DNA of 64,000 nucleotides, from assembly GCF_024223415.1 (NCBI RefSeq), contig NZ_CP100500.1; one strand, 5' to 3'. Position 1 is the stretch's first letter, and every line of letters begins with the position of its first letter. The notes below the pieces were generated by a model. It was not told where the DNA came from. It ran no database searches and saw only the letters and a program-made list of their open reading frames with translations. Of the stretch, positions 1 to 29,680 are shown piece by piece. This stretch comes from Escherichia coli. Its GTDB lineage: Bacteria; Pseudomonadota; Gammaproteobacteria; Enterobacterales; Enterobacteriaceae. Position numbers and translations under genes: made by a program.

Positions 1-842
1 TGGACAGCCGCGCCGTGCATGATTTCTTTGCCAGCGAACGTATTGACCAGGTCTATCTGGCGGCGGCGAAAGTGGGCGGCATTGTTGCCAACAACACCTA
101 TCCGGCGGATTTCATCTATCAGAACATGATAATTGAGAGCAACATCATTCACGCCGCGCATCAGAACGACGTGAACAAACTGCTGTTTCTCGGATCGTCC
201 TGCATCTACCCGAAACTGGCAAAACAGCCGATGGCAGAAAGCGAGTTATTGCAGGGCACGCTGGAGCCGACCAACGAGCCTTACGCCATTGCCAAAATCG
301 CCGGGATCAAACTGTGCGAATCATACAACCGCCAGTACGGACGCGATTACCGCTCAGTCATGCCGACCAACCTGTATGGCCCGCATGACAACTTCCACCC
401 GAGTAATTCGCATGTGATCCCTGCATTGCTGCGTCGCTTCCACGAGGCGACGGCACAGAATGCACCGGACGTGGTGGTATGGGGCAGCGGTACACCGATG
501 CGTGAATTCCTGCACGTCGATGATATGGCGGCGGCGAGCATTCATGTCATGGAGCTGGCGCATGAAGTCTGGCTGGAGAACACCCAGCCGATGCTGTCGC
601 ACATTAACGTCGGCACGGGCGTTGACTGCACTATCCGCGAGCTGGCGCAAACCATCGCCAAAGTGGTGGGTTACAAAGGTCGGGTGGTTTTTGATGCCAG
701 CAAGCCGGATGGTACGCCGCGCAAACTGCTGGATGTGACGCGCCTGCATCAGCTTGGCTGGTATCACGAAATCTCACTGGAAGCGGGGCTTGCCAGCACT
801 TACCAGTGGTTCCTTGAGAATCAAGACCGCTTTCGGGGGTAA
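1..842 (+). CDS. fcl: GDP-L-fucose synthase, C-terminal part (5' end lies outside the window)
   Basis: ORF 15..842 is open to the window edge; translation recognised as the short-chain dehydrogenase/epimerase Fcl (WcaG); stop overlaps next start (TAATG). Confidence 0.9.
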
Positions 843-1324
843 TGATGTTTTTACGTCAGGAAGACTTTGCCACGGTAGTGCGCTCCACTCCGCTTGTCTC
901 TCTCGACTTTATAGTCGAGAACAGTCGCGGCGAGTTTCTGCTTGGCAAAAGAACCAACCGCCCGGCGCAGGGTTACTGGTTTGTGCCGGGAGGGCGCGTG
1001 CAGAAAGACGAAACGCTGGAAGCCGCATTTGAGCGGCTGACGATGGCGGAACTGGGGCTGCGTCTGCCGATAACAGCAGGCCAGTTTTACGGTGTCTGGC
1101 AGCACTTTTATGACGATAACTTCTCTGGCACGGATTTCACCACTCACTATGTGGTGCTCGGTTTTCGCTTCAGAGTAGCGGAAGAAGAACTGTTACTGCC
1201 GGATGAGCAGCATGACGATTACCGCTGGCTGACGCCGGACGCACTGCTCGCCAGTGACAATGTTCACGCTAACAGCCGCGCCTATTTTCTCGCTGAGAAG
1301 CGTGCCGGAGTACCCGGATTATGA
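842..1324 (+). CDS. gmm: GDP-mannose mannosyl hydrolase (Nudix)
   Basis: 160-aa ORF recognised as Gmm/WcaH; annotated start may be the second ATG (845). Confidence 0.9.
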
Positions 1325-2544
1325 AAATACTGGTCTACGGCATTAACTACTCGCCGGAGTTAACCGGCATCGGCAAATACACCGGCGAGATGGTGGAATG
1401 GCTGGCGGCACAAGGTCATGAGGTGCGGGTCATTACCGCACCGCCTTACTACCCGCAGTGGCAGGTGGGCGAGAACTATTCCGCCTGGCGCTACAAACGA
1501 GAAGAGGGGGCCGCCACGGTGTGGCGCTGCCCGCTGTATGTGCCAAAACAGCCGAGCACCCTGAAACGCCTGTTACATCTCGGCAGTTTTGCCGTCAGCA
1601 GTTTTTTCCCGTTGATGGCGCAACGTCGCTGGAAGCCGGATCGCATTATCGGCGTGGTGCCAACGCTGTTTTGCACGCCGGGAATGCGCCTGCTAGCGAA
1701 ACTCTCTGGCGCGTGTACCGTGCTGCATATTCAGGATTACGAAGTAGATGCCATGCTGGGGCTGGGCCTTGCCGGAAAAGGCAAAGGCGGCAAAGTGGCA
1801 CAGCTGGCAACGGCGTTCGAACGTAGCGGACTGCATAACGTCGATAACGTCTCCACGATTTCGCGTTCGATGATGAATAAAGCCATCGAAAAAGGCGTGG
1901 CGGCGGAAAGCGTCATCTTCTTCCCCAACTGGTCGGAAATCGCCCGTTTTCAGCATGTTGCAGACGCCGATGTTGATGCCCTTCGTAACCAGCTTGGCCT
2001 GCCGGATAACAAAAAAATCATTCTTTACTCCGGCAATATTGGTGAAAAGCAGGGACTGGAAAACGTTATTGAAGCTGCCGATCGCCTGCGCGATGAACCG
2101 CTGATTTTTGCCATTGTCGGGCAGGGCGGCGGCAAAGCGCGGCTGGAAAAAATGGCGCAGCAGCGTGGACTGCGCAACATGCAATTTTTCCCGCTGCAAT
2201 CGTATGACGCTTTACCCGCACTGCTGAAGATGGGCGATTGCCATCTGGTGGTGCAAAAACGCGGCGCGGCAGATGCCGTATTGCCGTCGAAACTGACCAA
2301 TATTCTGGCGGTAGGCGGTAACGCGGTGATTACCGCAGAAGCCCACACAGAACTGGGGCAGCTTTGCGAAACCTTTCCGGGCATTGCGGTTTGCGTAGAG
2401 CCGGAATCGGTCGAGGCGCTGGTGGCGGGGATTCGTCAGGCGCTCCTGCTGCCCAAACACAACACGGTGGCACGTGAATATGCCGAACGCACGCTCGATA
2501 AAGAGAACGTGTTACGTCAATTTATAAATGATATTCGGGGATAA
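1321..2544 (+). CDS. wcaI: colanic acid biosynthesis glycosyltransferase WcaI
   Basis: 407-aa ORF, GT-B-like glycosyltransferase at the conserved wca position; 4-nt overlap with gmm. Confidence 0.85.
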
Positions 2545-2546
2545 TT

Positions 2547-3983
2547 ATGGCGCAGTCGAAACTCTATCCAGTTGTGATGGCAGGTGGCTCCGGTAGCCGC
2601 TTATGGCCGCTTTCCCGCGTACTTTACCCCAAGCAGTTTTTATGCCTGAAAGGCGATCTCACCATGCTGCAAACCACCATCTGCCGCCTGAACGGCGTGG
2701 AGTGCGAAAGCCCGGTGGTGATTTGCAATGAGCAGCACCGCTTTATTGTCGCGGAACAGCTGCGTCAACTGAACAAACTCACCGAGAACATTATTCTCGA
2801 ACCTGCAGGGCGTAACACTGCACCGGCCATTGCGCTGGCGGCGCTGGCGGCAAAACGTCATAGCCCGGAGAACGACCCGTTAATGCTGGTGCTGGCGGCG
2901 GATCATGTAATTGCCGATGAAGACGCGTTCCGTGCCGCCGTGCGTAATGCCATGCCATATGCCGAAGCGGGCAAGCTGGTGACCTTTGGCATTGTGCCGG
3001 ATCTACCAGAAACCGGTTATGGCTATATTCGTCGCGGTGAAGTGTCTGCGGGTGAGCAGGATACGGTGGCCTTTGAAGTGGCGCAGTTTGTCGAAAAACC
3101 GAATCTGGAAACCGCGCAGGCCTATGTGGCAAGCGGCGAATATTACTGGAACAGCGGCATGTTCCTGTTCCGCGCCGGACGCTATCTCGAAGAACTGAAA
3201 AAATATCGCCCGGATATCCTCGATGCCTGCGAAAAAGCGATGAGCGCCGTCGATCCGGATCTCGATTTTATTCGCGTGGATGAAGAAGCGTTTCTCGCCT
3301 GCCCGGAAGAGTCGGTGGATTACGCGGTCATGGAACGTACGGCAGATGCCGTTGTGGTGCCGATGGATGCGGGCTGGAGCGATGTCGGTTCCTGGTCCTC
3401 TTTATGGGAGATCAGTGCCCACACCGCCGAGGGCAACGTTTGCCATGGCGATGTGATTAATCACAAAACTGAAAACAGCTATGTGTATGCCGAATCTGGC
3501 CTCGTAACCACCGTCGGGGTGAAAGATCTGGTAGTGGTGCAGACCAAAGATGCGGTGCTGATTGCCGACCGTAACGCGGTGCAGGATGTGAAAAAAGTGG
3601 TCGAGCAGATCAAAGCCGATGGTCGCCATGAGCATCGGGTACATCGCGAAGTCTATCGCCCGTGGGGCAAATATGACTCTATCGACGCGGGCGACCGCTA
3701 CCAGGTGAAACGCATCACCGTGAAACCGGGCGAAGGCTTGTCGGTACAGATGCACCATCACCGCGCGGAACACTGGGTGGTTGTCGCGGGAACGGCAAAA
3801 GTCACTATTGACGGTGATATCAAACTGCTTGGTGAAAACGAGTCGATTTATATTCCGCTGGGGGCGACGCACTGCCTGGAAAACCCGGGGAAAATTCCGC
3901 TCGATTTAATTGAAGTGCGCTCCGGCTCTTATCTCGAAGAGGATGATGTGGTGCGCTTCGCGGATCGCTACGGACGGGTGTAG
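2547..3983 (+). CDS. manC: mannose-1-phosphate guanylyltransferase
   Basis: 478-aa ORF with N-terminal nucleotidyltransferase signature ([13 protein letters not shown]) and C-terminal cupin region; cpsB position. Confidence 0.9.
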
Positions 3984-4084
3984 CAGTTGAATAATCAACC
4001 GGATTAATTCTCCGGTAAATAACGACAAAAACAAAATTGGCCATTTCGGTCAGGGCCAACTATTGCCTGAAAAAGGGTAACGAT

Positions 4085-5455
4085 ATGAAAAAATTAACCT
4101 GCTTTAAAGCCTATGATATTCGCGGAAAATTAGGCGAAGAACTGAATGAAGATATCGCCTGGCGCATTGGTCGCGCCTATGGCGAATTTCTCAAACCGAA
4201 AACCATTGTGTTAGGCGGTGATGTCCGCCTCACCAGCGAAACCTTAAAACTGGCGCTGGCGAAAGGTTTACAGGATGCGGGCGTCGATGTGCTGGATATC
4301 GGCATGTCCGGCACCGAAGAGATCTATTTCGCCACGTTCCATCTCGGCGTGGATGGCGGCATCGAAGTTACCGCCAGCCATAATCCGATGGATTATAACG
4401 GCATGAAACTGGTGCGCGAAGGGGCTCACCCGATCAGCGGTGATACCGGACTGCGCGACGTCCAGCGTCTGGCTGAAGCCAACGACTTTCCTCCCGTCGA
4501 TGAAACCAAACGCGGTCGCTATCAGCAAATCAACCTGCGTGATGCATACGTTGATCACCTTTTCGGTTATATCAATGTCAAAAACCTTACTCCGCTGAAG
4601 CTTGTGATCAACTCCGGAAACGGCGCAGCGGGTCCGGTAGTGGACGCCATTGAAGCTCGCTTTAAAGCCCTCGGCGCACCCGTGGAATTGATCAAAGTGC
4701 ACAACACGCCCGACGGGAATTTCCCCAACGGTATTCCTAACCCGCTGCTGCCAGAATGTCGCGACGACACCCGCAATGCGGTCATCAAACACGGCGCGGA
4801 TATGGGCATTGCCTTTGATGGCGATTTTGACCGCTGTTTCCTGTTTGACGAAAAAGGGCAGTTTATCGAGGGCTACTACATTGTCGGCCTGCTGGCAGAA
4901 GCGTTCCTCGAAAAAAATCCCGGCGCGAAGATCATCCACGATCCACGTCTCTCCTGGAACACCGTTGATGTGGTGACTGCCGCAGGCGGCACCCCGGTAA
5001 TGTCGAAAACCGGACACGCCTTTATTAAAGAACGTATGCGCAAGGAAGACGCCATCTACGGTGGCGAAATGAGCGCCCACCATTACTTCCGTGATTTCGC
5101 TTACTGCGACAGCGGCATGATCCCGTGGCTGCTGGTCGCTGAACTGGTGTGCCTGAAAGGGAAAACGCTGGGCGAACTGGTGCGCGACCGGATGGCAGCG
5201 TTTCCGGCAAGCGGTGAGATCAACAGCAAACTGGCGCACCCCGTTGAGGCGATTAACCGCGTCGAACAGCATTTTAGCCGTGAGGCGCTGGCGGTGGATC
5301 GCACCGATGGCATCAGCATGACCTTTGCCGACTGGCGCTTTAACCTGCGCTCCTCCAACACCGAACCGGTGGTGCGGTTGAATGTGGAATCGCGCGGCGA
5401 TGTACCGCTGATGGAAGCGCGAACGCGAACTCTGCTGACGTTGCTGAACGAGTAA
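4085..5455 (+). CDS. manB: phosphomannomutase
   Basis: ORF 4037..5455; likely start at [14 protein letters not shown] (4085); phosphohexomutase motif TASHNP present. Confidence 0.9.
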
Positions 5456-13722: not shown

Positions 13723-14450
13723 CATATGAGGAAACATTTCAGCTGAAATAATTGAATATTCCAAAGCATGAGAGTTACTTAATTTGTAAAAGTGCTACAG
13801 TACAATAGAGAGGATCTCTGTCTTCATATTGTTTGCGATCATCTCAGATGAAGTTATTGATTTCATCTTTTAATAGAAGAACTGAATAGAATATGTATGG
13901 CATTATCATTTTGAACAATAATAATAGAATAAAAGGAAGACATCGAAATGGTGGTCAAACATTACATCAGTTCTATTGATTTGACAGCAGAGAAGTCTGC
14001 CACAGCGAACCAAAATTACTGACTCGTAGAGAAGAAGTTGCACTGGCTGCTGAATGGTAATGGATGAAGACGACAGAGAAATAAGAAAAGAAAACTCAGC
14101 AGAATTACCTTCAGGGATATAGCGCATCACTATTTATGTATTGACTAAAGATAAAGCATTTAAGAAAGGTTAAGGTGTAAGGTGTGAAAAGCAGCCATGG
14201 GTAAGGTTCGTTTCGCACAGGCGTTACTTACAGTAGATGGTCGGCACATCGTAAGACTTGGTCTGATTGCCAGATCATATGTGAGACATCAGAAAAAATT
14301 TAAGCAAATATATAAACAGTAGGTGATGTTGTTAAAGTATAAAACAGATATGGTAGTCAAATAAAGCAAAGTATCGTTGGAAAAATATCTGTAAAATCCC
14401 TGGTGCGTTCACGTGAGTTAGAGTAAAAGTAATGAGGAGGTTCTATTTTT

Positions 14451-15551
14451 ATGAGTTTTGAAAATTGGTATATAAAAGATATTGAACCATATAAACTGGC
14501 TAGTCATAAAGTATGGGACGATGTTTGCAACCGAGATATATTAAAATTAGATTGGAATGAAGCAACTATTCCTGCTAGTCCGTATGTAAAGAAAAGAATT
14601 TTAGAAACTATTGATAAAATAGAGTTTAGATATTACCCAAACGTAAACAACATGGAGTTGTTAACAGCTATCGCGGGATATACTCAACTCAACATAGAAA
14701 ATATTCAATATTTTCCAAGTTCTGATGCTGCACATGAATATATAGCATCAGTATTCTTAACATCAGAAGATAGAGTGTTAATATTGTCCCCGACATATGA
14801 TAATTTCAGGCTAACCTGTCAAAGTAGAGGGGCGGAAATATCGTATGTTAATTGTTTTGATGGGGCGTTTCAATTCCAGAGTGAATTATTTATAAATGTT
14901 TTGAAAGAAACAAAGCCTAAAATTGCATATATGTGTAACCCTAACAATCCGACGGGTTCAATAATAAGGCGGGAATATATAAAGAAAATATTAACTCTTT
15001 TTCCTGATATCTTGTTTGTTTTAGATGAGGCTTATATTGAATTTTCATCTGGTTCATGTGGTGATTTTGTTAAGGAATATGATAATTTGATAGTATCAAG
15101 AACCTTCTCGAAGGCATTTGCGCTGGCCAATTTTAGGATTGGTTATATATTGGCTTCACCTAAACTTATAGTTTCAATTAATAAAATAAGAAATTCTAAG
15201 AATGTAACGACATTATCACAAGAGGCTGCAGTTGCTGCATTGCATGATTCTCAATATATGCAAGCTTATGTTAATGAGGTGATTGTAGCGCGACAATACT
15301 TTATTGAAGAGATAAATAGAAGGTTTGGAGATAAGCTGATAGCATATGAAAGTCATGGTAATTTTGTTCTTGTAAAATGCTCCTCGGAAATACTAAAAAA
15401 AACATTAATAAAAGGCCTGGAGGAACAAGATATTTTCATAAGAGATTTGTCACACAAGGAGCTCAATGGTTTACATATAAGGATTACTATTGGAACACGG
15501 ACTCAAATGAGGCAGGTGCTTAATGTTATTGAAAATATTATTGGTCAATAA
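14451..15551 (+). CDS. PLP-dependent aminotransferase (HisC-like class I/II)
   Basis: 366-aa ORF with histidinol-phosphate-aminotransferase-like features; first gene of the AT-rich O-antigen cluster. Confidence 0.75.
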   Translation: MSFENWYIKDIEPYKLASHKVWDDVCNRDILKLDWNEATIPASPYVKKRILETIDKIEFRYYPNVNNMELLTAIAGYTQLNIENIQYFPSSDAAHEYIASVFLTSEDRVLILSPTYDNFRLTCQSRGAEISYVNCFDGAFQFQSELFINVLKETKPKIAYMCNPNNPTGSIIRREYIKKILTLFPDILFVLDEAYIEFSSGSCGDFVKEYDNLIVSRTFSKAFALANFRIGYILASPKLIVSINKIRNSKNVTTLSQEAAVAALHDSQYMQAYVNEVIVARQYFIEEINRRFGDKLIAYESHGNFVLVKCSSEILKKTLIKGLEEQDIFIRDLSHKELNGLHIRITIGTRTQMRQVLNVIENIIGQ

Positions 15552-15587
15552 TATGTTTGCAGGCGCTCTTTATTATGTTGGTCAGCG

Positions 15588-16277
15588 ATGAAATATAAAT
15601 ACGCTTTTTTTGATTTTTGTGAAACGTTGGTGGATTTACAAACTGCTGATGATTACATTTCTGATGTGATTATTAAGAAGGAAGGCCGATGGAGTTATAA
15701 GCTTGCGATTATTGGCTTCTTAAGGAATAGATGGGTTAATAAATTATTTAATAAATTGTTTAACAATTATGATAACCCTAAGTCTTTGATTTTGAAGCTG
15801 GTTAAAGGGTTTGACTATGGGGTCTTTTCTGTTGCTGCAGAAGAATATTGTAAAAAACTAATGGAGTATTACTTAATTGATGATGTTATTTCGGAGATGC
15901 TAGAATTAAAAAAAAAGAATTATCAAATAATCATTGTCTCTGGGGGATATGATATATATATAAAGCATTTTTTTTCCTCAGTTGTAGATAAGGTTATAGC
16001 TACCGAGATTGATTTTTCTGATTCTAAGTGTCTGGGGAAAATATCAGGTATTGATTGTTTAGGTGTGAACAAGTTAAACAAAATAAAGAAATATATTGAT
16101 GTCAACACAATAGATTATGAAAATTCCTACGTCTTTTCTGACAGTAAAACAGATTTGCCTCTTTTTTCGTTAGCAAAGAATAAAATTGTCATATCTAAGA
16201 AAAAAAACAAATCGTGGGTTAATGAGCAAAATGAAGAATTTATTGAAAAAGTATGGTGTCCTAAAAAAATATGCTAA
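15588..16277 (+). CDS. HAD-family hydrolase/phosphatase
   Basis: 229-aa ORF with N-terminal HAD motif I (FFDFCETLVD) and size typical of HAD phosphatases. Confidence 0.6.
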   Translation: MKYKYAFFDFCETLVDLQTADDYISDVIIKKEGRWSYKLAIIGFLRNRWVNKLFNKLFNNYDNPKSLILKLVKGFDYGVFSVAAEEYCKKLMEYYLIDDVISEMLELKKKNYQIIIVSGGYDIYIKHFFSSVVDKVIATEIDFSDSKCLGKISGIDCLGVNKLNKIKKYIDVNTIDYENSYVFSDSKTDLPLFSLAKNKIVISKKKNKSWVNEQNEEFIEKVWCPKKIC

Positions 16278-17145
16278 GAAGTATTATTACTATACTTCTT
16301 CTTTTTTAATGTCAGATGAATTATATATAAAAAGGAAGTTTAAGAAAATTTTCGGATATGCTTTGGATATCAATAATCCAAAAACAATGAATGAAAAGAT
16401 GCAATGGATGAAGTTACATATGCATCCTCAGGAATATAATATTTTTGCAGATAAACTTCTTGTTAGAAAATACGTGGAAGAAAAGATTGGTAAAAATATA
16501 CTAATACCTATTTTTGCAGTATACGAAAGTGAAGCCGAATTAAATATAGATTCTTTGCCTGACGAACCATTTATCATTAAGACGAATCATGATAGTTCTG
16601 GTGGAATAATCGTGAGAAACAAATCAGAACTCAATATAAAGGATGCAAAAAGTTTTTGTCGATTTAATTTGAATAACAATCATTATTATATATCAAGAGA
16701 GAAACATTATAAACATTTAGACAGAAAAATTATTATAGAGAAGCTCCTTCTTACAAAATCCGGAAAAATCCCAAATGATTATAAAATAAATTGTATAAAT
16801 GGGCGTGCTGAATTTATATATTGCTCTATTGATAGAGAGGGGAAAAATTACCGAAAGATTTATGACAGGTCTTGGTGTGAAATGGATTTTAAATGGGGAA
16901 ATAAAGATGAGTTTGAGCATAAATTTACTGGGCCCAATATTGAAAAGCCTGATAATTTAGATAAAATGATTGAGTATGCGGAGATATTATCAATGGGGTT
17001 TCCTTATCTAAGAATAGATTTATACAATGTTGATGGGGAAATATATTTAGGAGAAATAACTATTTATCATGGGGGAGGGTTTGATGTTATTGAGCCAAAA
17101 GAATATGACTTATTTTTTGGTAATAAGATTCATTTAGAAAAATGA
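16222..17145 (+). CDS. TupA-like ATP-grasp protein (putative amidoligase)
   Basis: ORF 16186..17145 overlaps the previous gene; start probably at an internal Met (16222 or 16231); resembles the TupA-like ATP-grasp family found in polysaccharide clusters. Confidence 0.6.
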   Translation: MSKMKNLLKKYGVLKKYAKKYYYYTSSFLMSDELYIKRKFKKIFGYALDINNPKTMNEKMQWMKLHMHPQEYNIFADKLLVRKYVEEKIGKNILIPIFAVYESEAELNIDSLPDEPFIIKTNHDSSGGIIVRNKSELNIKDAKSFCRFNLNNNHYYISREKHYKHLDRKIIIEKLLLTKSGKIPNDYKINCINGRAEFIYCSIDREGKNYRKIYDRSWCEMDFKWGNKDEFEHKFTGPNIEKPDNLDKMIEYAEILSMGFPYLRIDLYNVDGEIYLGEITIYHGGGFDVIEPKEYDLFFGNKIHLEK

Positions 17146-18362
17146 AAAATATTATAAAGAATGGGCTGTCTCTTTCTTTTATAAAGGCAGTGACTTTGCT
17201 ATTTCCTATCGCCATTGTACCTATCCTGATATCAAAGATAGGAATGGATAAATATGGGGAAGTTGTATTTATCACTGCAATATATTCATATTTTATTAAT
17301 GTGGTTAGCTTTGGATTTGAAGAATCAGCCACTCAAGTCTTGGCAAAGAATCACTTCTCAGGTTTGTCGAAAAATGAATATATTTTGTCTGTTATCGTGC
17401 TCAAGGGCATAATTGCTGTTTCTATAATTTTTGTCATTTGTGGTTTGTATTTTTTGGGGATGGGAGGAGATTTTTTCTCATTGCTATTTTGTATTACCAT
17501 CGTCGCTGAGGTTTTTAATCCCTTATGGTTTTATCAGGGGGTCGAAAGAATTCATATTATCTCAGTGAGCTCTATAGTATCAAAATCATTATATACAATA
17601 TTAATATGTCTGTTTGTGAGATGTAATAATGATTATTACCTTGTTCCTGTATTTTTAGGCGGTGCGAATATTCTTTCTTATGTCTATCCGTTTGTTGCTA
17701 TGTGTAATGAGTGTAAATTTCGGCGCAATGACTTGAACTATAATAATTTGAAAAAAGTATTATTAGACTCAGTTAGTATATTCCTTACTAATTTTATCCC
17801 AACATTGAAAGATAAGATAGGTGCTATATTGATAGGTTTATCTTTCTCCATGAATATCGTAGCGATTTATGATATAATTATAAAAATACTTAATTTATTG
17901 TTTATTCCAGTAAATGTAATAAATGCATCGTTCTATCCAACACTTTCCAGGAAGAGAGAAAAGAAAATATTAATGCAATTAATGTATATAAATTTGGGTT
18001 ATGCTATTTTTGCATTTGTTATCGTATGTAATTTTTTTGATTATTTTTCCAATATCTACTTCCAATCCTATTCAGCGTATTCCGATGCTGTAAAAATAAT
18101 ATCTGTGTCTGTTGTTTTTTACTCAGTGAGTTTAATGATTGGAAAAAATATCCTATTGGTCACTGGTTTTTATCATCATGTGCTGCTCAGTATTATATTA
18201 TCGACAGGATTTTATTTGATGTTTGTCTGCTTTATGTATTCTCTTAGTTCATTGAGTATATATTCATTATGCTTTTTAACAACAGCATCATTCTTATTTG
18301 AAATGCTGGTTAGGTTAATTATGTTAAAGAAGACTAAGGCCTTGTTTTTTTTTAAATATTAA
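17142..18362 (+). CDS. wzx: O-antigen flippase
   Basis: 406-aa, very hydrophobic, about 12 predicted TM segments, AT-rich; 4-nt overlap with the upstream gene. Confidence 0.7.
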   Translation: MKNIIKNGLSLSFIKAVTLLFPIAIVPILISKIGMDKYGEVVFITAIYSYFINVVSFGFEESATQVLAKNHFSGLSKNEYILSVIVLKGIIAVSIIFVICGLYFLGMGGDFFSLLFCITIVAEVFNPLWFYQGVERIHIISVSSIVSKSLYTILICLFVRCNNDYYLVPVFLGGANILSYVYPFVAMCNECKFRRNDLNYNNLKKVLLDSVSIFLTNFIPTLKDKIGAILIGLSFSMNIVAIYDIIIKILNLLFIPVNVINASFYPTLSRKREKKILMQLMYINLGYAIFAFVIVCNFFDYFSNIYFQSYSAYSDAVKIISVSVVFYSVSLMIGKNILLVTGFYHHVLLSIILSTGFYLMFVCFMYSLSSLSIYSLCFLTTASFLFEMLVRLIMLKKTKALFFFKY

Positions 18363-23511: not shown

Positions 23512-23698
23512 ACTTCATCTACCACGCTATAGTCGGTAAGTGGTCTTCGTTTTTCTTAAAAAAGAAGCAACGTGACATATTTTTCTTTGTTACAGAAATA
23601 TTAAGATATCCATTATCATTTTTTCACATTTGATAAAACTTATCTTATATATCCAATTACATATATATATTGCGATAGAGTCTTGACAGGAGTAAACA

Positions 23699-25105
23699 AT
23701 GTTAAAGCAACAGATAGGTGTTGTCGGTATGGCAGTGATGGGGCGCAACCTTGCGCTCAATATAGAAAGCTGTGGTTATACCGTCTCTATTTTCAACCGT
23801 TCCCGTGAAAAGACGGAAGAAGTGATTGCCGAAAATCCAGGCAAGAAACTGGTGCCTTACTACACGGTTAAAGAGTTTGTTGAATCTCTGGAAACGCCTC
23901 GTCGCATCCTGTTAATGGTGAAAGCAGGTGCAGGCACGGATGCTGCTATTGATTCCCTAAAACCATACCTCGATAAGGGCGACATCATCATTGATGGTGG
24001 TAACACCTTCTTCCAGGACACAATTCGTCGTAACCGTGAGCTTTCTGCCGAAGGCTTTAACTTCATTGGTACCGGAGTTTCCGGCGGTGAAGAAGGTGCG
24101 CTGAAAGGTCCTTCTATTATGCCCGGTGGCCAGAAAGAAGCCTATGAACTGGTTGCGCCGATCCTGACCAAGATCGCCGCAGTAGCTGAAGACGGTGAGC
24201 CATGCGTTACCTACATTGGTACCGATGGCGCAGGCCACTATGTGAAGATGGTTCACAACGGTATTGAATACGGCGATATGCAGCTGATTGCTGAAGCCTA
24301 TTCGCTGCTTAAAGGTGGCCTGAACCTCACCAACGAAGAACTGGCGCAGACCTTTACCGAGTGGAATAACGGTGAACTGAGTAGCTACCTGATCGACATC
24401 ACCAAAGATATCTTTACTAAAAAAGATGAAGACGGTAACTACCTGGTTGATGTGATTCTGGATGAAGCGGCTAACAAAGGTACCGGTAAATGGACCAGCC
24501 AGAGCGCGCTGGATCTCGGCGAACCGCTGTCGCTGATTACCGAGTCTGTGTTTGCACGTTATATCTCTTCTCTGAAAGATCAGCGCGTTGCCGCATCTAA
24601 AGTTCTCTCTGGCCCGCAAGCACAGCCAGATGGCGACAAGGCTGAGTTCATCGAAAAAGTTCGTCGTGCTCTATATCTGGGCAAAATCGTTTCTTACGCC
24701 CAAGGCTTCTCTCAGCTGCGTGCTGCGTCTGAAGAGTACAACTGGGATCTGAACTACGGCGAAATCGCGAAGATTTTCCGTGCTGGTTGCATCATTCGTG
24801 CGCAGTTCCTTCAGAAAATCACTGATGCATATGCCGAAAATCCGAAGATCGCTAACTTGCTACTGGCTCCGTACTTTAAACAAATTGCCGATGATTATCA
24901 GCAGGCGCTGCGTGATGTCGTTGCTTATGCAGTGCAGAACGGTATCCCGGTTCCTACCTTTGCTGCTGCGGTTGCCTATTACGACAGCTACCGTGCTGCT
25001 GTTCTGCCTGCGAACTTGATCCAGGCGCAGCGTGACTATTTTGGTGCACATACTTATAAGCGCATTGATAAAGCAGGTGTCTTCCATACCGAATGGCTGG
25101 ATTAA
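23699..25105 (+). CDS. gnd: 6-phosphogluconate dehydrogenase, decarboxylating
   Basis: 468-aa ORF recognised as Gnd ([19 protein letters not shown]-binding motif); core GC content. Confidence 0.95.
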
Positions 25106-25349
25106 TCTGATTTAAATCAATTAATCGATGCAAGGCCCGGAGAAATCCTTCGGGTTTTTTATTATACAAAGTGGCAGGTTATGGCTTTTTTATAATTTAT
25201 GGTTAAAAAGCGATATAATACATAGACGCACAGCAGGATTACTGCCTTGACAGTTCATCCGCATCAGCGTTAAAAATCCCGCAGTAGATGAAGATGTGTT
25301 GGTAGATTAATGACCACTCTAAATGTTTAACCGGAAGAAGTCAGAGCTA

Positions 25350-26516
25350 ATGAAAATAACAATTTCAGGAACAGGTTATGTTGGTCTTTCAAATGGTATT
25401 CTGATTGCGCAAAACCACGAAGTGGTTGCACTGGATATCGTTCAGGCCAAAGTGGACATGCTTAACAAGAAGCAGTCACCGATTGTTGATAAGGAGATTG
25501 AAGAGTATCTGGCGACTAAAGATCTCAATTTCCGCGCTACGACAGATAAGTATGACGCGTATAAAAATGCCGATTACGTTATTATTGCCACGCCTACCGA
25601 TTATGATCCGAAAACGAATTATTTTAATACCTCAAGCGTGGAAACGGTCATTCGCGATGTGACAGAAATTAATCCCAGCGCGGTAATGATTATAAAATCA
25701 ACTATCCCTGTTGGTTTTACAGAGTCTATTAAAGAACGGTTTGGTATTGAAAATGTGATTTTTTCGCCGGAGTTTTTACGCGAAGGGAAAGCACTTTATG
25801 ATAACTTGCATCCATCACGCATAGTGATTGGCGAGCAATCTGACCGCGCAGAACGTTTTGCAGCGTTATTACAGGAAGGCGCTATTAAGCAAGACATACC
25901 AATATTGTTTACTGACTCAACCGAGGCTGAGGCGATTAAACTTTTTGCCAATACTTATCTGGCGATGCGTGTGGCTTATTTTAATGAACTAGATACTTAC
26001 GCTGAAAGTCTGGGTCTTAACTCCCGCCAAATTATTGAGGGAGTTTGCCTTGATCCGCGTATCGGTAATCACTACAATAATCCGTCATTTGGTTATGGTG
26101 GTTATTGTCTGCCGAAAGATACTAAGCAGTTACTGGCAAACTATCAGTCAGTACCGAATAACTTGATCTCAGCAATTGTCGATGCCAATCGCACGCGAAA
26201 AGATTTTATTGCCGATTCTATCCTTGCACGTAAACCGAAAGTTGTTGGCGTCTATCGTCTGATTATGAAGAGTGGTTCGGACAATTTCCGTGCTTCCTCA
26301 ATTCAGGGTATTATGAAGCGAATCAAGGCGAAAGGCGTGCCTGTAATCGTTTATGAGCCAGCTATGAAAGAGGACAATTTTTTCAGGTCGCGCGTGGTAC
26401 GTGATCTGGATGCGTTCAAGCAAGAAGCTGATGTTATTATTTCTAACCGTATGTCTGCCGATCTGGCTGATGTAGCAGATAAGGTTTATACGCGCGACTT
26501 GTTTGGCAATGATTAA
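25350..26516 (+). CDS. ugd: UDP-glucose 6-dehydrogenase
   Basis: ORF 25323..26516; start at [16 protein letters not shown] gives 388 aa. Confidence 0.9.
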
Positions 26517-26535
26517 TTATTTTGTTTCATACTAA

Positions 26536-26566
26536 GAAAAGGCCCTAATAAATTAGGGCCTTTTCT
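26536..26566. terminator. bidirectional hairpin between convergent ugd and gla
   Basis: Perfect inverted repeat AGGCCCTAA-N-TTAGGGCCT flanked by A/T runs. Confidence 0.5.
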
Positions 26567-26581
26567 TATGATTTTGTAAAA

Positions 26582-27586
26582 TCAAACTTTATAGAAGTTA
26601 CGATACCATTCTACAAAGTTCTTTACCCCCTCTTTAACTGACGTTTCAGGTTTGAATCCTATTACGTCATACAGTGCTTTGGTATCAGCACTGGTTTCCA
26701 GTACATCACCGGGTTGGAGAGGCATCATATTTTTGTTGGCTTCAATACCCAGAGCCTCTTCTAACGCATTGATATAGTCCATCAACTCTACAGGCGAACT
26801 ATTACCAATGTTATAGACACGATATGGTGCTGAACTTGTTGCAGGCGAGCCTGTTTCTACAGCCCACTGTGGATCTTTTTCTGGAATAACATCCTGTAAG
26901 CGAATAATAGCTTCGGCAATATCATCAATATAAGTAAAGTCACGCTTCATTTTGCCGAAGTTGTAAACATCAATGCTTTTACCTTCCAACATGGCTTTAG
27001 TAAATTTAAATAATGCCATATCCGGACGTCCCCATGGACCATAAACCGTAAAGAAACGCAGTCCTGTGGTCGGTAAGCCATACAAATGAGAATATGTATG
27101 GGCCATGAGTTCATTCGCTTTTTTAGTTGCTGCATAAAGTGAAACAGGATGATCTACAGAGTCATCTGTAGAGAAAGGCATCATGCGGTTCATACCATAA
27201 ACAGAACTGGAGGAAGCGTAAAGTAGATGCTGAACATTATTATGGCGGCATCCTTCCAGTATGTTCAGGAATCCAATCAGGTTTGCATCTGCATATGCAT
27301 TGGGATTTTCAAGGGAGTAACGTACACCGGCTTGCGCAGCGAGGTTTATTACGCGATCGAACCGCTCCTCTGCAAACAGTGCTGCCATTTTCTCACGATC
27401 GGCCAGGTCAATTTTATAAAAACTGAAATTGTCGTGCTTGAGTAAATCAAGTCGTGCTTGTTTGAGGTTGACATCGTAATAATCATTTAAGTTGTCAATG
27501 CCTACAACCTGATGACCAGCTGCAAGAAGCCGTTTACTTACATAGAAACCGATAAAGCCAGCAGCTCCCGTAACCAGAAATTTCAT
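26582..27586 (-). CDS. gla: NAD-dependent epimerase, UDP-glucuronate 4-epimerase-like
   Basis: 334-aa ORF with Rossmann motif ([12 protein letters not shown]) and YxxxK; sits between ugd and wzzB on the opposite strand. Confidence 0.75.
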
Positions 27587-27761
27587 TTATTATCCTCTCT
27601 CAGGCTTGATTATAGCCAATCTTCATCTGGCATAACTGAAAGTTAAATCATACCGTTAGACAAGAAAAAAAGATAATCGGTATCAGTTCTAAACATGGCT
27701 GTTTTTTCTGGTAACGTGCTCATTTTACAATCAAAGATGTTCTAAACTGACTATACAAGCC

Positions 27762-27847
27762 GACGTCATTATTTCCAACCGTATGACAGAAGAGCTTAAG
27801 GATGTGGCAGATAAGGTCTACACCCGCGATCTCTTTGGCAGTGACTA
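27762..27847 (+). pseudogene. remnant of a second ugd 3' end (last about 28 codons plus stop)
   Basis: Translates to [28 protein letters not shown], a variant of the C-terminus of the intact ugd (…[25 protein letters not shown]); coordinates approximate. Confidence 0.6.
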
Positions 27848-27991
27848 ACATCTTGTTATCAGGGCGATTTTCGCCCTGATTGTCTTATGTTTCCTTTGTA
27901 ATAATTCATTGTTTTTATCATTTATCCTATAGCATTCATGGCGATTATTGCTAAACTATGGCGACTTAAAATTATTTCGTCCGTTAGGGTA

Positions 27992-28972
27992 ATGATGAGA
28001 GTAGAAAATAATAATCTTTCTGGGCAAAACCATGATCCGGAACAGATTGATTTGATTGATTTACTGGTTCAACTATGGCGCGGCAAGATGACTATCATCA
28101 TTTCTGTCATTGTGGCTCTTGCCCTGGCTATAGGGTATCTGGCCGTTGCCAAAGAAAAGTGGACTTCAACAGCTATCGTTACTCAACCTGATGTGGGGCA
28201 AATCGCTGGTTATAACAATGCCATAAATGTGATTTATGGTTCGGCAGCGCCGAAAGTGTCTGAGATCCAGTCGATGTTAATTGGTCGTTTCAGCACGACA
28301 TTTTCTGCATTAGCAGAAACGCTGGATAATCAGGAAGAACCTGAAAAACTGACCATTGAGCCTACCGTTAAAAATCAGTCATTACCTTTAGCGGTTTCTT
28401 ATGTCGGTGAAACACCTGAAGGTGCGCAGAAACAGCTGGCGCAGTATATCCAGCAAGTTGACGACCAGGTAAATGAAGATCTGGAAAAAGACCTGAAAGA
28501 CAACATCGCGCTGCGTATGAAAAACTTGCAGGATTCGCTGAAGACCCAGGAAGTGGTTGCGCAGGAGCAGAAAGATCTGCGTATCCGTCAGATTCAGGAA
28601 GCGTTGCAGTATGCGAATCAGGCGCAGGTGACAAAGCCACAGGTTCAGCAGACTGAAGATGTGACGCAAGATACGTTGTTCCTTTTGGGGAGCGAAGCGC
28701 TGGAGTCGATGATTAAGCATGAGGCGACCCGTCCGTTGGTGTTCTCATCAAACTACTATCAGACACGTCAAAACCTGCTGGATATCGAAAGCTTAAAGGT
28801 TGATGATCTTGATATTCATGCTTACCGCTATGTAATGAAACCGACGTTACCTATTCGTCGCGATAGTCCGAAAAAGGCAATCACCTTGATTCTGGCGGTG
28901 CTGCTGGGCGGCATGGTTGGCGCGGGGATTGTGCTGGGGCGTAACGCTCTGCGTAATTACAACACGAAGTAA
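27992..28972 (+). CDS. wzzB: O-antigen chain-length determinant
   Basis: ORF 27938..28972; start at MMRVENNN gives 326 aa; two TM segments flank a periplasmic coiled-coil domain. Confidence 0.9.
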   Translation: MMRVENNNLSGQNHDPEQIDLIDLLVQLWRGKMTIIISVIVALALAIGYLAVAKEKWTSTAIVTQPDVGQIAGYNNAINVIYGSAAPKVSEIQSMLIGRFSTTFSALAETLDNQEEPEKLTIEPTVKNQSLPLAVSYVGETPEGAQKQLAQYIQQVDDQVNEDLEKDLKDNIALRMKNLQDSLKTQEVVAQEQKDLRIRQIQEALQYANQAQVTKPQVQQTEDVTQDTLFLLGSEALESMIKHEATRPLVFSSNYYQTRQNLLDIESLKVDDLDIHAYRYVMKPTLPIRRDSPKKAITLILAVLLGGMVGAGIVLGRNALRNYNTK

Positions 28973-28989
28973 TCTTTTCGGTTTTAAAG

Positions 28990-29027
28990 AAAAAGGGCAG
29001 GGTGGTGACACCTTGCCCGTTTTTTTT
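28990..29027 (+). terminator. putative intrinsic terminator after wzzB
   Basis: GC-rich hairpin (GGGCAGGGTG…CACCTTGCCC) followed by TTTTTTTT; a second palindrome (GGATGCGA…TCGCATCC) lies just downstream, facing the convergent his operon. Confidence 0.45.
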
Positions 29028-29068
29028 GCCGGATGCGACAACAATATCGCATCCGCTTACCCCGTAAC

Positions 29069-29673
29069 TCACTGATGCCGTTTACGCAGGTTCTCAATTA
29101 CCGTCGTTAAATCCAGATCCTGATCCTGTAACAGCACCAGCAGGTGATACATCAAGTCAGATGCCTCGTTGGTCAGTTCAAAGCGGTCATGCACCGTTGC
29201 GGCCAGTGCGGTTTCCACGCCTTCTTCGCCCACTTTCTGCGCAATGCGTTTGGTGCCGCTGGCATACAGTTTGGCGGTGTAGGAGGTTTCCGGGGCGGCA
29301 GATTTACGTTCGGCGAGTAGTTGTTCCAGTTGATACAGGAACAGCCACTGGTGAGCGGTGTCGCCGAAGCAGCTGCTGGTGCCTTTGTGGCAGGTTGGCC
29401 CGATGGGATTCGCCAGCACCAGTAATGTGTCGTTGTCGCAGTCCGGCGCAATATTTACTACGTTGAGGAAATTACCCGACGTTTCGCCTTTGGTCCACAG
29501 TCGCTGTTTAGTGCGCGAGAAGAAGGTGACTTTGCCGCTTTCGATGGTTTTGTCTAAGGCTTCCGGGTTCATATAGCCCAGCATTAGCACTTCGCCAGAT
29601 ACAGCGTGTTGCACAATCACCGGCATCAGACCGTCGGTTTTTTCCCAATCCAGTTCGCGACGTTGTTGTTCTG

Positions 29674-29680
<7 letters not shown>
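29069..29680 (-). CDS. hisI: bifunctional phosphoribosyl-AMP cyclohydrolase / phosphoribosyl-ATP pyrophosphatase
   Basis: 203-aa ORF recognised as HisIE; last gene of the his operon. Confidence 0.95.

Follow-up and report, generated by a model that had tools for sequence, protein, structure and literature searches.

A second ugd 3' end beyond gla at the O-antigen locus of Escherichia coli and its probable origin in the import of a foreign ugd-gla pair

We analyzed a 64,000-nt stretch of Escherichia coli DNA (the window). It matches strain Combat11I9, which was isolated from urine in Hong Kong, with 100% identity, and it carries a second 3' end of ugd (UDP-glucose 6-dehydrogenase) on the far side of gla, the gene for a probable UDP-glucuronate 4-epimerase. 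Read along the plus strand, the window leads from the O-antigen cluster in the direction of the his operon. The 6-phosphogluconate dehydrogenase gene gnd (23699-25105, plus strand; annotated as gndA in Combat11I9) consists of resident-type DNA, with 94.3% identity to K-12 over 23684-25115, where the homology ends. It is followed by an intact ugd of the gla-linked allele class (25350-26516, plus strand) and by gla, also called uge (26582-27586, minus strand), which encodes a 334-aa enzyme of the short-chain dehydrogenase/reductase type. Between these two convergent genes there is a perfect 17-nt inverted repeat (26533-26568), forming a terminator-like hairpin that is usable from both sides. The region upstream of gla, with its promoter and 5' untranslated region (27587-27754), is absent from K-12 and is joined at 27754-27755 to the ugd remnant (27755-27848, plus strand), a K-12-type sequence made up of the last 30 codons and the stop codon of ugd without a start codon. 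A terminator-like hairpin at 27858-27880 (plus strand), which aligns with the K-12 sequence downstream of ugd, is the original terminator of the resident ugd and is still in place after the remnant. The O-antigen chain-length determinant gene wzzB (27995-28972, plus strand) is resident DNA continuous with the remnant, and hisIE (29069-29680, minus strand) follows.

A repeat search made without prior assumptions found a direct repeat of 92 nt (26425-26516 and 27757-27848), the two copies of which are 76% identical. A second ugd 3' end downstream of gla, as claimed in the original prediction, was borne out by this repeat and by translation, and both C-terminal peptides quoted there were exact when 27753-27848 and the intact ugd were translated. 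Three details needed correction. In the comparison with K-12 the homology to E. coli ugd begins at 27755 and the stop codon of the remnant is at 27846-27848, which gives 30 full codons and a stop instead of 28 codons and a stop, and the distance to the start codon of gla (27586) is 168 bp instead of about 90 bp. To call the remnant "in-frame" is meaningless, since it has no start codon, an in-frame TAA is found at 27744-27746 and no open reading frame (ORF) covers it in frame; it cannot be expressed alone. In the annotation of the NCBI Prokaryotic Genome Annotation Pipeline (PGAP) it is a partial pseudogene, "hypothetical protein, missing N-terminus".

Alignment to ugd alleles gave matches far beyond chance. 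The remnant is identical to the last 94 nt of K-12-type ugd alleles at 88-91 positions, to the 3' end of the window's own intact ugd, 1.3 kb upstream, at 71 of 94, and to the ugd ends of six other genera at 67-75 of 94. The segment 27755-27948 matches the ugd 3' end and the downstream spacer in more than 4,000 E. coli genomes with 88-97% identity (E 1e-54 to 3e-85). The remnant is followed without interruption by the usual ugd terminator of E. coli, the spacer between ugd and wzz, and wzzB itself, and a single alignment to K-12 with 87.5% identity covers 27755-29100. Judged from these alignments, it can be regarded as a gene remnant of the resident ugd allele and as a recombination scar, genuine but ordinary. 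In strain M8 (O113; locus L100, 13301-14463) an IS3 element is found inside the remnant with an AAG target duplication, splitting it in two. As this insertion is tolerated, the remnant is probably dispensable, and we regard it as non-coding debris.

The DNA between gnd and the remnant has a different relationship to K-12. Identity to K-12 is 74.6% over ugd, no homology is found over gla and its upstream region, and homology is back at 27755. As K-12 homology stops at 25115 and resumes at 27755, the imported divergent block was delimited as 25116-27754, comprising the gnd-ugd spacer, ugd, the shared terminator, gla and the gla upstream region that came with it. Over its whole length the intact ugd has 74.2% nucleotide identity to K-12 ugd and 79.6% to that of Citrobacter, whereas it is 95-96% identical to ugd of O87, O139 and strain C8. 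It is thus about as distant from K-12 ugd as either of the two is from the ugd of Citrobacter, Enterobacter, Kluyvera and Phytobacter. For gnd the identity between genera is 83-86%. The product of the intact ugd matches the NCBIfam equivalog NF011631 over residues 1-388 of 388 with 793.6 bits, against a cut-off of 757.

When species-representative genomes were scanned with Gla, the matches listed included six taxa in which the order gnd>ugd><gla(>wzz)<hisIE is native: Citrobacter sp. FP75, C. werkmanii, Enterobacter cloacae, E. asburiae, Phytobacter massiliensis and Kluyvera. The alignments with the two Citrobacter loci are unbroken over ugd, the intergenic hairpin and gla (78-80% identity), and therefore the pair came as a unit. 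With FP75 the alignment extends about 90 nt into the region upstream of gla, which is homologous to its Citrobacter counterpart at least up to 27677. No second ugd end was found in the native Citrobacter, Enterobacter, Phytobacter and Kluyvera loci. The relatives of Gla among the matches listed have 84-88% amino acid and 73-80% nucleotide identity. Since the native-order loci are only 73-80% identical to the block in the window, none of them is the donor. Neither a transposase nor flanking inverted repeats were detected in or around the block with the ORF list and the repeat search.

The distribution of the scar was determined in 5,426 complete E. coli genomes. The combination of ugd tail, gla and remnant was found at ≥80% query coverage in 269 of them, the 2.6-kb block at ≥80% coverage in 290, and gla of the window class (95-100% identity) in 278, so that the block occurs with 95-100% identity in about 278-290 genomes; about 5% of E. 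coli genomes thus carry the scar. Based on the wzx and wzy names given by PGAP, the carriers belong to O87 (type strain NCTC9087), O139, O113, O115 (NCTC10444, ETEC-2265) and O54, and the scar is also found with clusters that have no type name, among them that of the window and, in strain C8, one of the LL004 type. The spread of the carriers over O54, O87, O113, O115, O139 and unnamed types points to an old event, widely inherited across several O serogroups and not strain-specific. Pairwise identities between six carriers were 94.9-98.6% for ugd and 96.8-98.8% for gla. Any gla-like gene was found in 530 of the 5,426 genomes (about 10%), and every inspected copy is between ugd and his. One record, strain IH5 (L089, NZ_CP168949.1 5037067-5065226), has a truncated gla amid fragments of genes that have nothing to do with each other (tuf, casA, flagellar, phage capsid, bla and others). 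This record, apparently mis-assembled or concatenated, was left out of the analysis.

The junction between imported and resident DNA is shared by the carriers in three classes. Class B (O87, O139, O113) has 17 extra nucleotides, TAGACCACCTTCAAACA, at the joint, and within these CCACCTTCAAACA is genuine ugd sequence. Class A, to which the window, O54 and O115 belong, is without these 17 nt and has the same donor-side end, CTGACTAT. Because the donor-side end is common to both and class B keeps 13 nt more of true ugd, class A is probably a secondary 17-bp deletion of class B, with the direction from B to A. In an evenly spaced sample of carriers class A was the commonest with about 60%, followed by class B with about 25% and class C with about 12%. 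Counts obtained with short queries (66-84 nt) were at least 81, 66 and 15 genomes for A, B and C; these are lower bounds, as megablast needs an exact 28-mer. In class C the breakpoint is a few nucleotides from that of class B and the rest of the block is 92-99% identical, and a patch of about 45 nt that adjoins the joint on its donor side is barely alignable (about half) to A and B (L004 8609-8661, L087 14171-14220, L088 14171-14223). BLAST searches against every fetched locus gave no further copy of either variant of this patch. The class C strains also have a hisIE fragment followed by a full O8-type cluster (manC, manB, wzm, wzt and further genes) beyond wzz, and thus two polysaccharide clusters in series (L087 15642-28188; L004 10077-14626; L088 15640-28202).

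Additional alleles were found that combine both types of ugd. In strains E22 (L090 3249-4415) and CP131_Sichuan (L091 3249-4415) the gnd-ugd spacer and ugd nucleotides 1-300 are of the window type (96-100%), nucleotides 400-1167 are of the K-12 type (87-99%), and gla is absent. The 80-90% identity band of the block search, which includes the E22 and CP131_Sichuan alleles, has 668 records. These chimeric alleles may be products of gla loss or partial imports. They are direct evidence for the mosaicism at the O-antigen/gnd/ugd hotspot that the original prediction had proposed.

Further gla classes in E. coli have 60-80% identity to the class of the window. In the O111-type locus (O111:NM 08-4377, L093 5001-6005) the gla between ugd and wzz has 77% identity and is, in the PGAP annotation, a pseudogene interrupted by an internal stop; a ugd remnant is absent. 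The O100-type loci (W150, L005 6016-10702; ETEC1746, L094) have a ugd with 86-87% identity to Enterobacter cloacae and E. asburiae and no scar; IS600 and IS30 are present between gla and wzz, and wzz is foreign, about 68% identical to that of the window. The O100 type is a further independent import of ugd-gla. The Klebsiella-like locus of TL-14 has no scar either. A Klebsiella-type capsule locus in strain Ec-050-T20-ESBL (L095 3642-6157) has ugd and a co-directional gla, followed by a decayed ugd tail of 93 nt and a native Klebsiella-type terminator, and is an independent second example of such a scar. As in the window, a ugd 3' remnant of about 93 nt with its native terminator lies beyond gla and the breakpoint is within about 20 nt; unlike in the window, the gla is of another class (75% identity) and orientation, and the resident ugd is Klebsiella-like. 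The remnant itself also differs from that of the window in being decayed at the protein level (EAVVSIS..., DLAGK), and is named "UDP-glucose 6-dehydrogenase" (partial) by PGAP.

The enzyme encoded by gla was compared with known structures. The window Gla aligns end to end with the Klebsiella structure 5U4Q (E 4e-190, about 85% identity), and the next best match is also full-length, to the UDP-glucuronate 4-epimerase of Bacillus cereus, 6ZL6 (E 2e-43). Both rank ahead of epimerases of the GalE, WbgU and WbpP types. The motifs GAAGFIG (GxxGxxG, Rossmann) and SSS...YAATK (YxxxK; Y..TK in 6ZL6) are in register with 6ZL6. No NCBIfam equivalog reaches its cut-off for Gla, the GalE, RmlB and TviC models being far below, and PGAP names the product "NAD-dependent epimerase". 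Previously, the same layout of gnd, ugd, a 334-aa gene on the complementary strand and wzz was reported for strain LL004, which has an O unit with D-galacturonic acid (D-GalA); the gene is called gne in that paper, which states that gla "always maps elsewhere" (PMC8657804). An O-antigen review, in the part drawn on here, places the genes for UDP-GalA "elsewhere in the chromosome" (PMC7685785). The ugd-linked 334-aa epimerase is, based on its sequence, very probably gla and not gne, as a gla-like gene is present only in the 530 genomes mentioned above and every inspected copy is between ugd and his.

It was also considered whether the window O-antigen cluster is the LL004 cluster, as the gene lengths match. 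This was rejected, the 420-aa and 269-aa proteins being only 33% and 28% identical. The LL004-type genes are carried by strain C8 and not by the window, and C8 has the LL004-type glycosyltransferases WP_000856120 and WP_001285383. At the start of the window O-antigen cluster (about 14450-17150) genes for a HisC-like aminotransferase, a HAD-IB phosphatase and an ATP-grasp amidoligase are found. These genes hint at the synthesis of an amino compound and its attachment to a uronic acid by an amide bond, and a requirement for gla would be in keeping with this. An ATP-grasp amidoligase is present also in the O54 carrier LI60C3. By analogy with LL004, gla would serve to supply GalA for the O antigen of this strain.

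Taken together, the second ugd end is most readily explained as the scar of a single, old, replacement-type recombination that brought a foreign ugd-gla into E. coli, to which we give a probability of about 0.8. The recipient would have been an E. coli chromosome with the usual order gnd-ugd-wzz-his, and the donor another enterobacterium with gnd, ugd and then gla on the opposite strand. At the left end homologous recombination would have taken place in or just after gnd, which is the likely homologous anchor, and at the right end an illegitimate joint would have linked the spacer upstream of gla to a point within the resident ugd, about 110 nt short of the stop codon. We infer from the end product that both joints were made in a single step. 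A complete foreign ugd and gla would in this way have taken the place of the resident spacer between gnd and ugd and of some 1,055 nt at the start of the resident ugd, and the resident ugd tail, its terminator and wzz would have been left untouched. The gain for the recipient would have been the conversion of UDP-glucuronate to UDP-galacturonate for O antigens containing galacturonic acid. Afterwards the junction would have been inherited and spread among lineages and O serogroups by ordinary homologous recombination, with a further 17 bp lost at the joint in the lineage of the window. The central claim of the original prediction, that gla and the present ugd allele came by a recombination ending inside ugd with the resident 3' end left behind, is supported by the allele identities, the unity of the block and the lack of a scar in the native order.

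Four points weigh against this explanation. No donor was found, and the closest ugd-gla among the matches listed from species representatives is 78-80% identical. The patch of about 45 nt in class C could mean a second, independent event. The pairwise diversity of 1-5% within the block is high for one event, unless this is very old or was refreshed by later exchange. Finally, the link of this strain's O antigen to GalA is indirect.

The class C patch bears on the possibility that the junction arose more than once. In that case ugd nucleotides around 1055-1075 would be a preferred or the only tolerated joining site, and A/B, C and the Klebsiella-type locus would be independent. The nearly coincident breakpoints of classes B and C, found together with a donor side that differs over about 45 nt, would agree with this, and so would the 93-nt ugd tail of Ec-050-T20-ESBL, which starts at ugd nucleotide ~1073 in an unrelated locus. 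However, classes B and C are 96-99% identical in ugd and gla and hardly differ in the first ~125 nt upstream of gla, which fits one event. Two uniformly distributed breakpoints would fall within 20 nt of each other with a chance of about 3%, and with a much greater one if short remnants are the only ones to survive. Neither a Chi site nor any other recombination signal is nearby. We therefore consider a repeated origin unlikely. The 64-kb window has seven Chi sites (GCTGGTGG), all on the plus strand, where 1.6 are expected by chance. None of them is between 8322 and 38883, so the entire stretch from the O-antigen cluster to his is Chi-free, and a Chi site was ruled out as the cause of the breakpoint.

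A broader form of this idea is that the last ~110 nt of ugd are a recurrent, non-random docking point for gla-containing DNA in Enterobacteriaceae, with at least two and possibly three acquisitions ending within about 25 nt, and that the 17-bp trimming recruited a -35-like hexamer for a hybrid gla promoter. We mention it as a speculation that is rather doubtful.

The remnant could also have been kept for a function, either as part of the wzz regulatory region or, in the form with the 17-bp deletion, as the -35 element of such a hybrid promoter. A minus-strand promoter-like pair, TTGGAA-17 nt-TATAGT (27778 to 27750), is indeed directed towards gla, with the -35 in the dead ugd tail and the -10 on the joint with the 17-bp deletion. 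Class A is the commonest form, with about 60% of the sampled carriers, and no frameshift is present in the remnant of any inspected sequence. Against this, the region has three promoter-like sites where shuffled sequence has a mean of 4.2, and no Rfam family was matched: a scan of 25000-29200 gave just two hits, neither of which reached the threshold, and these fall on the ugd/gla terminator hairpin and were judged to be due to chance. Between classes the remnant is 90-98% conserved, which does not exceed the values for wzz or the spacer, and IS3 interrupts the remnant in M8. Retention for function thus appears improbable.

Two steps instead of one would likewise leave a resident ugd tail beyond gla. 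In such a scenario gla alone would have been inserted into the resident ugd ~110 nt from its end, inactivating it, and the broken 5' part would later have been replaced by a foreign intact ugd. Piecemeal exchange of ugd does take place in E. coli, as the chimeric alleles of E22 and CP131_Sichuan show. However, ugd, the spacer with the shared hairpin, and gla are collinear with the native pair of Citrobacter and Enterobacter, and the window-type gla is essentially always found with the window-type ugd (278 versus 290 genomes). The intermediate, a truncated K-12-type ugd together with gla, was not seen at any sampled locus, and this course of events seems quite improbable.

At first sight, the two direct copies of the 92-nt segment that flank gla could have come from a tandem duplication of the ugd 3' end on the spot, or from a mobile gla cassette that duplicated its target site, and could have diverged there afterwards. 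This can be practically discounted, as the copies are 76% identical and yet the remnant is 94-97% identical to the ugd alleles of other strains, as the whole upstream ugd, beyond its tail, has only 74% identity to K-12, and as no transposase, integrase or terminal inverted repeats were found. A target-site duplication by a transposon or insertion sequence was rejected separately: near-identical short repeats and a transposase would be expected, and the repeats are 92 nt long and 76% identical. An assembly or annotation artefact is excluded by the presence of the structure in 269 independently finished genomes, including NCTC reference strains.

A single replacement-type import, as preferred here, resembles homology-facilitated illegitimate recombination, in which one end is a homologous anchor and the other an illegitimate joint, and which has been described for naturally transformable bacteria. 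As in that process, foreign DNA has here replaced the resident DNA from the gnd anchor to an arbitrary point in a resident gene, and a truncated copy is left. It differs in that the mechanism is inferred here from the end product alone. The process would be expected to leave a few bases of microhomology to ugd (around CCACCTTC) at the joint. Since natural transformation is not a classical trait of E. coli, transduction or conjugation may have brought the DNA in.

The scar gives a direction to the change: gla-positive E. coli arose from a gla-negative, K-12-type arrangement. Much of the ability of E. coli to make O antigens with GalA (O54, O87, O113, O115, O139 and unnamed types) seems to trace to one imported ugd-gla block of 2.6 kb. 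The finding has a practical bearing on the annotation and in-silico serotyping of the gene between ugd and wzz, and recombination tracts at the O-antigen hotspot can conveniently be traced with the remnant and the chimeric ugd alleles as markers. In a literature search no account was found of a ugd remnant in E. coli, nor of a gla lying between ugd and wzz in this species. The scar adds an instance to a known category and no new concept, and current concepts are unchanged by it.

Mosaic and intergeneric alleles of gnd next to rfb have reportedly been found in studies of the Nelson and Selander type. The gene remnants known from O-antigen loci of E. coli and Shigella are similar to the one described here in that a truncated copy borders an imported segment between galF and his and the neighboring housekeeping genes have divergent, chimeric alleles. 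In the part of the review drawn on here, nine serogroups with gene remnants are among 68 "anomalies", which are read as signs of past genetic events (PMC7685785). The remnant in the window differs from these in being outside the usually analyzed galF-gnd region, in being common to many serogroups, and in concerning ugd and gla. In Klebsiella an inverted copy of uge is found next to the cps cluster (PMC3438125). The native ugd/uge (gla) pair of Klebsiella and other Enterobacteriaceae has the same genes in the same convergent orientation and in the same position between gnd and his. Unlike the locus in the window, it has one ugd and no leftover tail, whereas in E. coli the pair is an accessory block, carried by about 5% of genomes.

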